DNA of 64,000 nt from Eledone cirrhosa (taxonomy: Eukaryota), in NCBI GenBank assembly GCA_964016885.1, contig OZ024751.1, positions 11,656,001 through 11,720,000 on the forward strand. Reading direction: 5' to 3'. The position numbers and the translations under genes were made by a program. The notes below the pieces were generated by a model. The model searched no databases and was not told where the DNA came from. It saw only the letters and a list, made by a program, of their open reading frames with translations. Below are positions 35,437-47,190 of this stretch, piece after piece. Each line of letters begins with the position of its first letter. Positions within the stretch are counted from its first letter, which is position 1.

Positions 35437-35625
35437 AGGAACGAGTAGGACCCCGACGGCTGAGCTCAAGCCGTTTCGACGGCTAATTCCAGAATTAGCC
35501 GTCGAAACGGCTTGAGCTCAGCCGTCGGGATCCTACTCGTTCCTGTTACCCACTCTACTACACTAAGTATTGAGTACTTTGGTGCGTTATGGTCCACCTG
35601 GTTCCTTACCACATTTCCTTCGTTA
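35437..35625. mobile_element. Family P-E fold-back (apex ~35491)
   Basis: 35437-35489 is the reverse complement of 35493-35544. Confidence 0.88.
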
Positions 35626-35784
35626 TATATATATATATATACATACATACTTACATCTAAGTAAGTGCCGTACTAAGAGTGAGAAATGAAATTTCGTTTC
35701 ATTCTATTCCATTTATATATATATATGTATGTATATTGTATTTATGTATTTCATTATTTCATTATTATTATTATAAAAGACTAA

Positions 35785-35977
35785 GGTGGGGGATGGGCAG
35801 TATCGGTAGAGGGTCGGACGCCATGCTTTGACGCAAAGAGTTACAGCCCTTTCCATTCTGAGTTCAAATCCCGTCGAGGTTAACTTTGCCTTTCATCCTT
35901 ACGGGGTCGATAAAATAAAGTACCAGTAATGCACTGGATAATTGCTGGCCTTGTGCCAAACGTAGAAACAATTATTA
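35785..35977 (+). mobile_element. tRNA-derived SINE family S2 (resembles cephalopod SINEs); other copies ~21130, 36825(-), 49525, 49970, 55730(-)
   Basis: A-box-like GGGCAGTATCGG, B box GAGTTCAAATCC, body 'ctttgcctttcatcct..ggggtcgataaaataaagtaccagt', (ATT)n tail. Confidence 0.9.
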
Positions 35978-36349
35978 TAAAAGACAAATATGTATATATA
36001 TATTTATATATGTGTGTGTGTTTCTGTGCGCGTGTGTTTGAGTGTGTGTACATGTATGTAAAAATATTAGTATATTCGTGCCGTCAAAAATGGCTCTAAT
36101 TAATACTGCATTATTTAATTAAATATACCAGAAAAAGAAATGTTTCATTGTGCGTTATATAGTCACGGATACAACGGTAACAATCTGAAGGTAGGGAATT
36201 TACAAAAAAAGTACACGTATAGAATAAATACACAGGAACATGAGGGAGTTCATAAAAAGAATAAAGTTATTCGAAAGTTGTTACTACTGGTCCGAATCTC
36301 ACCGAGGTGTTCTTGCTCTCTCTCTCTCCCTCCCTCTCTCTCTCTGATC

Positions 36350-36582
36350 GATCGACAAGATCCCAGACCTCTTGCACTTGGCGAGTGGAGTGGACGTCGT
36401 CAAATCGGACCGAGGAAACAATGTTTCCATTGGTCTTTCTGTTGCTGACACTATCTTCCGGTCGCAAATCCTGGCAGAAGGAACAACATGAAATAAAGTG
36501 TCTTGCTCAAGGACACAATGAATCACTCGGTCCGAGAATTGAACTCGCAGCCCCACGATTGCTAATCCAACTCCTCGCGCCT
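36350..36582 (-). mobile_element. Diverged S1 SINE
   Basis: Reverse similarity to 610-810. Confidence 0.8.
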
Positions 36583-37273
36583 TTTTGTAGGTGTTCTACT
36601 GGAATATTTCAATCCTTTGTCTGTTTATCACTTCAAGAACTGGTTCATATTATGCTTCTTTTTAATCACATCATTGTTATTATTCCGTATAAATAAATAA
36701 ACGCTGTTCTATGACAATTTATAAGGAGTAAAATTCAAATTTGTCAATACCAGTTACTAAGGTACCACGTCATAAATGTAGTATTTCCTTTTTACGTAAT
36801 AGTTTCTGATTCAGGCACGATTAAATCGAACCCAGTGCATTACTGGTGCTTTGTTATATCGACCCCGTAATGATGAAAGTCAAAGATAACCTCAGCAGGA
36901 TTTGAAACCAGAACGTAAAGGGCCGTAACTCTATGCCGCAAAGTTCTACCGGTACTGTGATCCGATCTTCTCTAAAGAAAGGAAAAAGGTAGTTTTTGCC
37001 AAATCGCATGCCTAGCGGCCAGAATGGTGACATCAGAGTAACTTGCGCTAAAGATATCCAGGGGCCATATGGTGGTGTTAAGTCGAGCAACGGCTTAAGT
37101 CTACAAGGCAAAAGCTTTTATAGTGAAAAGGCTTCCCAGGAGAATTGGTTCTTGTGTTTCTTTTTTTTTTATCAACGCTTAAGCCATATAAATTCATTTA
37201 CATCATGCCATTTAGAGCGGTCATAATTTTTATTGAAATTAACAAAGCTGGTCGCAATGTATGTATGTGTATG

Positions 37274-37323
<50 letters not shown>

Positions 37324-37427
37324 TGTGAGTGTATATATATATATATATATACACACATAGATGAATATATATATCTTTGTATATATATATATATATATAT
37401 ATATACATAGATGAATATATATATCTT

Positions 37428-37467
<40 letters not shown>

Positions 37468-37662
37468 CATGCATATATATGTTTGTATATATATATATAT
37501 ATATATATATTCTCTCTGGTGGTAGGAGAGGGTGGGGAGTGGAGGTCATTGGTTGAAAGAAAAGGGAATTCATTCAAAGCTAATTCTTTAAAGCTATAAT
37601 TTATATTTGGAGTGACAAAGGCAGAAAGAATTCTATAAAGAGGTTCAAATTGGGGTGCAACC

Positions 37663-37664
<2 letters not shown>

Positions 37665-37728
<64 letters not shown>

Positions 37729-37804
37729 GTATATATACATACACATATATATACATACATATACATATAAATATATATACATATATACATACATATACAT
37801 GTGC

Positions 37805-37843
<39 letters not shown>

Positions 37844-38071
37844 TATGTATATGCATATGTATATATATGTATATATATTCATATGCATATGTATGTATGT
37901 ATATATATGTGTATTTATATATACGTATATATATGTGAGTATACATATATGTATATGTATATATATGTATATATATATGTATATATATACATACACATAT
38001 ATATATATACATACATATACATATATATACATATATATACATACATATACATATATATACATACATATACA

Positions 38072-43729: not shown

Positions 43730-43820
<91 letters not shown>

Positions 43821-44149
43821 ATACATATATATATATATATGTATATATACGTTTAACACAGTCTAATTTTTTTTAGAAGATAGCAGACAAAACAAAAGTG
43901 AATATTCACATTTAGACTTTCAGAAAGAAGTTTTATGACACACACACATGTATATACATATACACGCGCACACACGTATGGATATATATATATATATATA
44001 TATATAATTACAACAGTGATATAAATAGGTACTTAAGTTTAGTGTAATTCTGGACCCCAACTCATTCAGCCTGTCATGAGAAAAAGAAAATTAATAAAAA
44101 AAGTCCTCTTTGGTAGAATATTTTTACCAAACATTTACTACAGTATATA

Positions 44150-44200
<51 letters not shown>

Positions 44201-44204
<4 letters not shown>

Positions 44205-45950
44205 ATAATAATAAATTTGAAGACTAAAATCCAATGAGGGCTCGATTAGGATAAATATATATCAAATATATAAGAGCCCGAGAGAAAATATTTATTAACA
44301 TAACAGATTAAAGTTTAAGCAAAGAATCGCTGCTTTCACCCTTAATGGGATCTACTAAAACTAAAAAAATCAATCGGTGAACGCAGAAGTAAATATTTCG
44401 AAAAACGTTGCAGTCGAAGGAAAACAGGAAGACGATACTTTGGTTCGTGAAGATGTTCCCTGGCAATGAACAAAAAAAAGCGAAGATAAAACGTAGTTTG
44501 TGGGGCGATGATAACAAATACACGCAGAGAGAGAAGCATGTTTATGGTATAAATGAAGTCATAGACTAATATTCTATATAGGAAACCGAATGATTCTCGG
44601 CTTCAGAGTTAAGGATAATGTAAATAAATTAGTAGAACGACAATGACAGAGGTTATTAAAATTAAATAATTAAATATATGCATACGCGCATCTATATACG
44701 TACATACACAGGCACTCGCAAAACACACGCCATGCATGCATATACATGCACGTGCACATAAACACGCGCACACATACATAAATCCGGACGAAACCTATAC
44801 CCGCACACATAGGAACATATACACCGAATACACATAACAAATTTTATAAAAATGTGTGTGTGTGTATGTGTGTGTATGTATACATATAATTATATAAACG
44901 TATATAAATATACACACATAAATACGCATATAACGCAAGCGCACTCATACCTACAGATAAAAACATATATGTTCACCAAACGTACATCAACCAAAAAACA
45001 ATGTACACATATACACACCTTACTACGTGCAAACACGCATACACGCATACGCACACAAACACAAAATACACGTATACACATAACCATAACATATATAACC
45101 AGTATATATAATATGATTTATACACCTATAATAAATACAAGCATATATACGAACGAGAAAGTATACGTACTTCACAAAACATACGGGTAATGTATACTTA
45201 CCTATACACATAAGTAATAGTATAAACATAAAATATATTTAGCTATCACATGAAGACAAATTATCCGCGTATTGTTCGTACTATCCGTTAGGGTATAATA
45301 TGTGGCTGTAATACAGGAAAGTGTTATGCAATTTGTGTTTACAAGCCGAAACTGCCTCAGATTTTTGTTTAAGATGTGGGCTTTGAGGTAGAGTATTTCC
45401 ATGGCTTCAGCTGCGCAAAGATCACAAGGTGTTTTATTTGCGTGACACGATCTAGTCTTAGCTAGGATGTCCCAGTGTAAACTATATTGTGTGTGGTTGT
45501 CTTTTAGACTCCAGATATAAGCTGAAAGTGACGTCATATTCCTTCTTAAAGGGTTCAGAAAAGAATGGGTGTGCATGTAAAGGCGCTGCTTGAATCTATT
45601 GGCAGTTAACCCTATGTAGGCCCTAAGAGACGTGAGTGTTTCGATCTTACATTTGTAGACAATGTTACTGGAGAACCATTTCCCGGATAGAGGGCAGTCA
45701 GCCCGATTCCTACAATTACAGTTAGTGCTAGCTAGAGGGTTGCAAGTGTTCCTACGGCTAGGTAAATTAGCTAAATTTGAAGCAGTGTTGTTATGAGCAA
45801 GGTTAGGAGTCGTAGAGCTTTTCTTGTTTTCCTTCGGTTGCAACGTTTTTCGAAATATTTACTTCTGCGTTCACAGATTGATTTTCTTAGTTTCAGAAGA
45901 TCCCGTTAAGGGTGAAAGCAGCGATTCTTTGCTTAAATTTTAACCTGTTA

Positions 45951-45957
<7 letters not shown>
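44201..45957 (-). mobile_element. 5'-truncated PLE (family P-D): GIY-YIG ORF remnant + 3' UTR, with an inverted copy of the 3' region at its 5' end
   Basis: ORF 45202-45843: CNCR-x4-CPL..IVYKC..AYIGLTANRFKQRLYMH..CDLC..E; 44300-44431 is the reverse complement of 45820-45950. Confidence 0.9.
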
Positions 45958-46028
<71 letters not shown>

Positions 46029-46183
46029 GAAAAAAAGATGAAATCGAAAATGCAACTGGAGTTTTATTTTTAAAAAAGTAAGACTCAAGATGCATTTTCG
46101 ATTTCATCTTTTTTTCTTTATACTTTCACTCGTGTATGACACCTCGGTTATTTTTCCTTTTGTAGAAAACCACTCATTTTCTA

Positions 46184-46256
<73 letters not shown>

Positions 46257-46268
46257 CTAACATCTCTC

Positions 46269-46355
<87 letters not shown>

Positions 46356-46999
46356 ATATATAAGGTAACATCTATTTTTGTTGCGGCACCGGGAGTAAAT
46401 GTATAATTTAGAAAATAAGCATCTTCTAGTAGCCTTCTTAAAATCGATGTTGCTTCTTAACGTGTTCATATCTAGAAAGAAACTTACTTCCAAATGTCGG
46501 CAGCATAGCATCCCCGTATAATTCTTTGTCTCGACACTCTTGCTATAAAAGGTTTATTTTAGATTACTTTATTTCTACATCTAAAATTAAATAATGCCTC
46601 ACCAACTATAATATTTATGTATTATAAATTTTACCATAACTGATGAAATCTCAGGACATCTTAGGTTTGACTGAACTTACGCTATCGATATAAGCCAGTA
46701 AGTAGCGCCATATACAATCCTATATTAATATACGACCAATTCTATATTTATGTTGCGTTCATGCTCTCTGACATTGTATATATATATATATATATAGAAA
46801 GAGAGAGAGAGAGAGAGAGAAAACAAGACTAGACCTGTTTCGTTCGGGTGAAATCTTAATTTAACAGAGAATCTTATTTAATACAGAAATTTAATACAGA
46901 AAAGCTTCATATAGGAGCTTTTCTGTATTAAATATTTCTGCTTTGTATTGAGTACCTTACTTACTGTGGTTACCCCCGATTGACCCAGGGATAAACTTA

Positions 47000-47186
47000 A
47001 CGAAGGAAGTGTGGTAAGGTACCATGTGGACCAGAACGCACCAGAGTACTCAATACTATGAGGAGTAGAGTGGGTAATAGGAAAAGAATCAGGGCCCTGA
47101 ATGCTGAACTCCGGCCGTTTCGACAGCTAGTTCAGAACTAGCTGTCGAAACGGCTGGAGCTCAGCCGTCGGGGTCCTGACTCTTTT

Positions 47187-47190
<4 letters not shown>
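47000..47190. mobile_element. Family P-E fold-back (apex ~47133)
   Basis: gacagctagttc-a-gaactagctgtc centre, arms ~55 bp. Confidence 0.85.

Follow-up and report, generated by a model that had tools for sequence, protein, structure and literature searches.

Penelope-like elements (PLEs) that carry an endonuclease are described as inserting in units in which an inverted, 5'-truncated copy lies next to the 5' end and one side bears a tail of 30-40 bp (PMC8557442), and palindromes at the inverted junction have been interpreted as products of self-priming (PMC3846280). PLE hammerhead ribozymes are minimal, variable and weak, and dual hammerhead motifs on opposite strands were previously noted in metazoan PLEs (PMC4209133). 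In vitro, a PLE protein for which a dimer is predicted cuts and extends both target strands, with two start sites that bound the tail, and the hammerhead is dispensable for insertion (PMC11167929). Members of the Hydra clade have DKT in place of DKG, a CxCx5C linker, CxxC and CxH motifs and (TA)n insertion sites, and carry hammerheads (PMC8557442). How PLE inverted structures form (PMC8557442) and what role the PLE hammerhead has (PMC11167929) are questions posed in these papers. The passages on PLE units in PMC3846280 and PMC8557442 do not relate the junction position to the ribozyme, and a literature search, which covered few subscription papers, found nothing that relates the two. Here we compare with these systems the palindromic repeats of a 64,000-nucleotide (nt) window of Eledone cirrhosa DNA (contig OZ024751.1, positions 11,656,001 to 11,720,000, forward strand; all coordinates below are those of the window).

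The animal DNA of the window is rich in AT and contains abundant (TA)n and related repeats; its comparison with itself yielded many short palindromes and inverted pairs that group into repeat families. The palindromes are head-to-head, 5'-truncated terminal-repeat copies of PLEs in (TA)n (Table 1); they are themselves ordinary PLE debris and members of an already known kind of structure. All eight units measured have a one-sided tail, one arm being 40-94 nt longer than the other (at least 65 nt in seven of the eight), and the 3' end of the tail-less arm is constant within a family across independent copies (35438/47188, 42300/45955 and 14936/25258/46027). Similar to the published insertion units (PMC3846280, PMC8557442), they combine head-to-head copies, junction palindromes, a one-sided tail, AT-rich targets and a hammerhead-like motif in the terminal repeat, whereas their tail lengths of 40-94 nt compare with a published 30-40 bp. 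The arms of the 19393 unit are 99.7% alike, so this unit is young; elsewhere the arms are 75-96% alike.

The physical tie to a PLE coding sequence exists for family D (the family of the 42250 palindrome) only; the other families, including P-E (35490/47133) and F39 (39120), were assigned to PLEs by their common layout. The open reading frame (ORF) at 45202-45858 retrieved six homologues of 392-716 amino acids (E 7e-20 to 6e-16), which also align along 32161-34099, 45364-45732 and 26273-27795. A reverse transcriptase followed by an endonuclease in one ORF, with YRDDG and F/YIG motifs, was found, as was the inverted 5'-truncated copy beside the 5' end (44202-45820 (-) joined to 45821-45955 (+)). 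Pfam searches of the window ORFs and two of the homologues named no GIY-YIG and no PLE domain (one match below the cut-off, on homologue P0001, was disregarded), so the name GIY-YIG is based on the motif pattern and PMC8557442. The near full-length copy at 32161-34345 contains RWR, DKT, YRDDG, CxCx5C, CxxC and CxH motifs, with a decayed CTGAAGA near 34277 in its 3' end. Marks of the Hydra clade were thus present, namely DKT (in the 32100-34110 copy), CxCx5C and CxxC (each in four of four regions scanned), CxH and (TA)n flanks, and the C-terminal endonuclease and short ORF likewise agree with that clade (PMC8557442). This placement is by motifs and not by a tree; unlike the Hydra elements, the long copy in the window has RWR rather than RWK (RWK is found in homologue P0005), all copies are broken, and the hammerheads are often non-canonical.

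The initial annotation had placed four fold-back points beside hammerhead-like motifs, and the junction sequences bear out that placement. At 42250, said to lie in the stem II loop, the arms stop at 42249 and 42251 on either side of a single C, within a GTTAA loop whose unfolded counterpart is the motif at 45894 (CAGAAGA at 45894, GAAA at 45914). The 35490 and 47133 apexes do share one position, as had been claimed: after spacers of CA and A, the right arms begin at 35492 and 47135, and in both cases GAAAC follows at a distance of exactly 12 nt (35504 and 47147). At 39120, described as directly 5' of CTGATGA, the 6-nt spacer CTATTC (39118-39123) is followed by CTGATGA at 39124. Spacers of 0-2 nt occur at eight of the 16 apexes examined, and the junctions in the window are mostly symmetric to within 18 nt.

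We scored 18 head-to-head junctions for arm ends falling between GAAA and 6 nt before the core (the core/stem II zone). The zones were drawn after the data had been seen, the P-E zone was assumed, and two junctions were unable to reach any motif; 10717/10955, 30190 (no motif assigned), 39490 (two structures possible) and 8486-8604 (a 19-nt piece) stand outside the count, and the 46912 palindrome was counted within the 46856 junction. Six junctions lie in the zone, with both arms at 42250, 35490, 47133 and 39120 and with one arm at 46856 and 13445, and twelve lie outside it. Shuffling arm lengths among junctions gave 3.06 expected in the zone (p=0.034), exponential-truncation nulls gave p=0.03-0.18, and uniform-truncation nulls ranged from p=0.13 (25-150 nt) to p<0.001 (25-500 nt). 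From the window alone, enrichment at the motif is borderline. The general claim that fold-back points coincide with the ribozyme region therefore stands for six junctions and not for twelve, and the four near and three far points given for it were a selection. The coincidence is instead family-specific: a reverse-transcription stop at the ribozyme has modest support in family D (from the window and from sequencing reads) and in P-E and F39 (from the window), and did not hold for the families of 19393, 12740, 15072/25310/46072 and 11380. Arm ends 9-16 nt before GAAA were found at five P-E loci (35490, 47133, 20278, the 8586 piece and probably 39490).

For family D, four public sequencing runs were aligned to 44202-44670, three of contigs (35, 12,939 and 1,369) and one of raw reads (19,548). 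At 44288, loose ends leading into (TA)n were present in 100 contigs of run X2, 33 contigs of run X6 and 2217 reads of run X17, which confirms the fixed end of the tail-less arm. Among the 15 joints listed out of 74, nine are opposite-strand joints; eight of these nine have their upper end within 44337-44363, the 27 nt of stem II and core, and the ninth has it at 44316, the first base past the predicted cut. Against exponential nulls this gives a binomial p of ~1e-4 (8/9 listed joints), or ~0.004 when distinct ends only are counted (5/6). A clipping simulation returned a zone share of 0.22-0.28 against a true 0.23, so clipping is not the source of the clustering; as mismatches private to the window copy make reported ends accumulate at 44345 and 44353 in the simulation, joints with those coordinates were handled as clipped classes. 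In five of the nine joints the lower end does not exceed 44275 and so falls short of 44288, where tail-less arms start; in seven it does not exceed 44292. The joint (44275,44316), with a side length of 29, has a tail-less second arm sharing no sequence with the other arm, which a simple fold-back is unable to produce; (44292,44353) probably has a tail-less second arm too. Read depth was rejected as proof of a stop zone because it is confounded by diverged subfamilies and by the mismatches private to the window copy.

We favour, with about even confidence, a reading in which two target-primed complementary DNAs (cDNAs) stop preferentially at the ribozyme-like region and are then linked through very short self-complementary overlaps, not through a fold on stem II. 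Both cut target strands would each prime a cDNA, one starting at the tail end and the other presumably at the internal site. The cDNAs would stop preferentially at the hammerhead motif, through RNA structure or a bound protein, and their ends may then be joined via overlaps of a few self-complementary bases; in families with apexes elsewhere, the same joining would take place on other short inverted repeats. This reading builds on features read directly in the DNA, namely the head-to-head layout, the tail on one arm, the fixed 3' end of the tail-less arm, the coding link of family D and the junction sequences. It is preferred because the 42250 and 39120 junctions contradict folding on stem II, because arms can be non-overlapping (in the window at 8486-8604 and probably at 46821-46999) and because the PLE protein primes both strands (PMC11167929). 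At 12740, the first part of the spacer reads as though the tail-less arm, and not the tail-bearing one, ran on into it. Spacers as tight as 0-2 nt would leave little room for an easy hairpin and would be no bar to the pairing of two like strands.

Nevertheless, several points weigh against this reading. The twelve junctions away from the ribozyme make up two thirds of those scored, and near-perfect symmetry at apexes that differ within a family (15072 versus 25310/46072; 7646 versus 35490) is more simply obtained from the snap-back of a single cDNA. The 19946 apex lies on an apparent natural hairpin, which is present in unfolded relatives also. Non-overlapping arms could come from later loss of the palindrome centre, and at 42250 two-primer joining requires an extra 5-nt duplication or a blunt join. 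As for the reads, the nine opposite-strand joints come from the listed fraction of all joints, their head-to-head nature is deduced from side lengths, and the binomial test counts them as independent events. Most of their support is from a single reduced-representation run with reads that terminate at AATT sites (44214 and 44630), a bias towards short first arms under which symmetric apexes further than ~44345 stay hidden. Diverged subfamilies also confound the step in depth across 44345-44362.

Explanations of how arms are joined and explanations of why their ends cluster answer different questions, and the confidence we attach to them is not mutually exclusive; two-primer joining and snap-back may both be in operation. 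In the snap-back alternative, which we consider possible though less probable, a single cDNA stops and folds back on whatever 2-5 bp inverted repeat is close to its end, then serves as its own template and is resolved at a constant internal position; the ribozyme region would then be favoured merely as a stop site or for its richness in short inverted repeats. It stays a strong rival because most window junctions are symmetric, because of the 19946 hairpin, because a later deletion is able to erase the overlap between arms, and because snap-back is documented for R2 cDNA (PMC11371274, PMC11331408). The arms of each unit, moreover, always belong to the same subfamily, a fold on TC-TG-GA is compatible with the minus-strand reading of 35490 in view of the 8586 sequence, self-priming was proposed for PLE palindromes in 2013 (PMC3846280), and small-hairpin inverted duplications are reported at L1 sites (10.1101/2024.12.14.628481). 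On the other hand, snap-back needs that later deletion wherever arms do not overlap, must accommodate the 0-2 nt spacers at half of the apexes examined, and would make the fixed tail-less end a stop site, whereas this end agrees with a known start site (PMC11167929). The units resemble L1 twin priming and R2 snap-back (10.1101/2024.12.14.628481; PMC11371274; PMC11331408) in their inverted 5'-junction segments, which in L1 and R2 form through short microhomology, and for R2 templates with one ribozyme 5' module, truncation less than 50 nt from the 5' end was frequent (same sources). In contrast, L1 and R2 are non-long-terminal-repeat elements, the second arm of the PLE units would begin at a constant internal position, and inverted units predominate here and are a minority there.

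We think it rather unlikely that the clustering has no link to the ribozyme at all, with arms typically of ~50 nt and a motif whose distance from the internal start site happens to be 40-70 nt in these families. A length of 45-54 nt was scored for seven of the 18 arms; since three of these (25310, 46072 and 12740) lie away from a ribozyme motif, arm length alone does place some apexes at the motif, and exponential nulls with a mean of 30-80 nt give p=0.08-0.18 for the window. The listed read joints, however, are clustered far beyond the exponential nulls, and families whose motif lies 55-108 nt away have arms of 86-185 nt, not 50. We give still less probability to run-off, with an RNA 5' end close to the motif as the source of the clustering. 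No P-E copy at eight loci clearly extends more than ~16 nt beyond GAAA, one listed read joint lies at 44316 next to the predicted cut, and the short arm at 7646 ends beside the GUC site, all of which would suit run-off. Yet copies of family D continue through the motif (44202-45820 and 45821-45955; read depth near 3600-3900 at 44362-44409), eight of the nine listed joints have their end further upstream, 22-46 nt from the predicted cut, and the published passages on another PLE report no RNA ends at the cut (PMC11167929).

The mechanism proposed in the initial annotation, in which a reverse transcriptase stalled at the ribozyme leaves a cDNA that primes itself on the stem II hairpin, we now regard as very improbable. 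In its favour, the 42250 apex does lie in the stem II loop and the cDNA strand is able to form a 3-bp hairpin, ccc-ttaac-ggg; 35490 and 47133 share a single position; and one arm at 13445 stops mid stem II. The predicted product is nonetheless contradicted at two junctions. The centre at 42250 reads ccc-ttaa-c-ttaa-gg instead of that unfolded loop, which fits a blunt join of two loop ends, or a TTAA join plus a 5-nt duplication, and at 39120 the whole of stem II is retained in both arms. The strongest P-E hairpin (AGCCGT-CGAA-ACGGCT) is likewise unused and is retained in both arms at 35490/47133, and none of the listed opposite-strand read joints has the form of a stem II fold-back. Within P-E, the model presupposes that stem II is GACGGCTAATTC/GAATTAGCCGTC, and no unfolded core-bearing P-E copy was found. 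Fold-back chimeras are a known artefact of amplified libraries and the 19393 arms are nearly identical, but an assembly or library origin of the palindromes has next to no probability given arms that differ elsewhere, a tail-less end that is constant across loci and in three other runs, and three of the nine listed joints that are common to a raw-read run and a contig run.

The motifs themselves are best termed hammerhead-like, with self-cleaving activity that is only putative. The 39120 motif has a type I layout with CTGATGA, a stem of 3-4 bp, GAAA and a GUC site, and its minus arm has a three-stem fold (z -1.5); it lacks a G10.1-C11.1 pair (T stands opposite C or T in the two arms), and Rfam returned HH9 at only 13.2 bits (E 1.3), under the gathering score of 52. 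In family D, the window copy and the majority of reads have CAGAAGA (U4 changed to A) with a CUU site and a 3-bp stem II (CCC/GGG flanked by T) without G10.1-C11.1. At 45894 there is no CUGANGA core, no Rfam hammerhead was found up to E 10, and the lowest-energy fold is not a hammerhead; the loose-end consensus of run X6 keeps the core with other loop letters, at low agreement (0.46-0.54). P-E shows the 3' half only (GAAA, a 5-6 bp helix III and GUC), and a CTGANGA...GAAA scan found no CUGANGA core at eight P-E loci, which stop before the core or are decayed. Rfam gave no match at gathering score in the whole window, mostly microsatellite and hairpin microRNA matches in an E-value run (among 150 of 672 matches listed), and no hammerhead above 18.6 bits in four small regions. 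This silence carries little weight, because even the textbook-looking motif at 11850 was missed. A metagenome scan with the P-E motif yielded 57 loci, none family-like over more than 28 nt, which we take as chance.

Compared with minimal type I PLE hammerheads (PMC4209133), the 39120, 12790 and 11850 motifs are alike in their type I layout, short helix I, extra base after A9 and short or palindromic helix III, whereas family D differs in CAGAAGA, its short stem II, the missing G10.1-C11.1 pair and the CUU site, and P-E in showing its 3' half only. The regular motif at 11850-11873 (+), with CTGATGA, a 4-bp stem II and GAAA, is a single copy in the window. Two unrelated families, at 15120-15140 and 45894, have a common CAGAAGA...GAAA variant core; in the 15072 family the boxes are 5 nt apart. 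A decayed CTGATGA stretch at 46635-46720 (+) was considered as an unfolded P-E copy and dropped, as BLAST gave no link; it has a passing likeness to the part beyond 39490. The passages of 10.64898/2026.07.22.740005 deal with tandem retrozymes and have no bearing on junctions.

Table 1. Head-to-head units and related PLE copies in the window.
Feature	Positions	Strand	Description
P-E insertion	8486..8604		Tail-only arm fused to a 19-nt piece, on the opposite strand, of the region around the 35490 apex; duplication of TCCAGAATTAG; no overlap between the pieces in the element
Near full-length PLE, decayed and frameshifted	32161..34345	+	Reverse transcriptase and C-terminal endonuclease; ends in (TA)n
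P-E head-to-head unit in (TA)n	35438..35623		Tail-less arm 35438-35489 (sense -), spacer CA, tail-bearing arm 35492-35623 (sense +); GAAA at 35504, stem III, GUC site near 35524; no CUGANGA
F39 unit	39072..39255		Tail-less arm 39072-39123 (sense -); tail-bearing arm from CTGATGA 39124 to ~39255 (sense +); hammerhead core, stem II, GAAA and GUC retained in both arms
Decayed P-E copy	39363..39530	-	Family match extends to ~12-16 nt before GAAA; the next 35-40 nt represent a decayed upstream portion or, alternatively, a short inverted arm
Family D unit	42106..42300		Tail-bearing arm 42106-42249 (sense -), one C, tail-less arm 42251-42300 (sense +); stem II loop is end point of both arms
5'-truncated family D element	44202..45820	-	GIY-YIG-type endonuclease end, ORF 45202-45858; presumed 3' region of low complexity; hammerhead-like motif in the terminal repeat (core at 44357-44351, cut predicted between 44317 and 44316); tail of ~86 nt, down to 44202
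Inverted tail-less partial terminal repeat, same insertion as 44202..45820	45821..45955	+	Abuts 5' end of the longer opposite-strand copy; unfolded CAGAAGA-TCCC-GTTAA-GGGT-GAAA (45894-45917); 5' end 73 nt upstream of motif
F39-like unit	46821..46999		Short arm 46821-46856 (sense -) ending in core; long arm starting 3' of motif; arms probably overlap hardly or not at all; templated filler and small palindrome at 46912
Second P-E subfamily unit	46997..47188		Tail-bearing arm 46997-47133 (sense -), one A, tail-less arm 47135-47188 (sense +); GAAA at 47147

Further PLE copies were seen in the window. The 5' ends of two tail-only P-E copies (16874 and 8575) coincide with the starting site of tail-less arms. 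At 7634-7668 lies a tiny P-E palindrome whose short arm ends beside the predicted GUC cut; this end and the read joint at 44316 are the two hints that a template was cleaved. The stretch 19208-20350 contains a nested pair of palindromic units from a single family, and a P-E copy (20150-20278) separates the arm of the second unit from its tail. An inverted pair of 533-nt PLE endonuclease ends, 96.8% alike, lies at 26268-27776, and its 444-nt spacer carries on the coding sequence of one arm. Outside these families, the window contains a fragment of another reverse transcriptase at 50713-51210 (+) (Pfam RVT_1, E 4.9e-07), a long CAG-rich tandem array at 5294-6713 with higher-order periods of 28, 56 and 136 nt, and a tandem array at 56218-59337 of ~305-nt units made of CA/TA microsatellite. 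A dispersed tRNA-like short repeat family with at least eight copies (35796-35980, 36818-36943, 8349-8482 and others) looks like a short interspersed element, and its copy at 35796-35980 like a cephalopod one.

We would like to put forward, as a tentative suggestion that we ourselves hold to be unlikely, that in Hydra-type PLEs the uncleaved hammerhead is a built-in roadblock for the element's own reverse transcriptase, at which two cDNAs, one primed from each target strand, stop and fuse head to head, so that the ribozyme would set the length of the inverted repeat. If this were true, PLE hammerheads would gain a function other than cleavage, and the persistence of catalytically poor CAGAAGA variants would be explained. 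The junction data offer a testable hint on the origin of PLE inverted structures and on the role of the hammerhead, and a genome this dense in junctions, with 18 scored in 64 kb, could separate two-primer joining from snap-back and show whether the ribozyme is the stop site.

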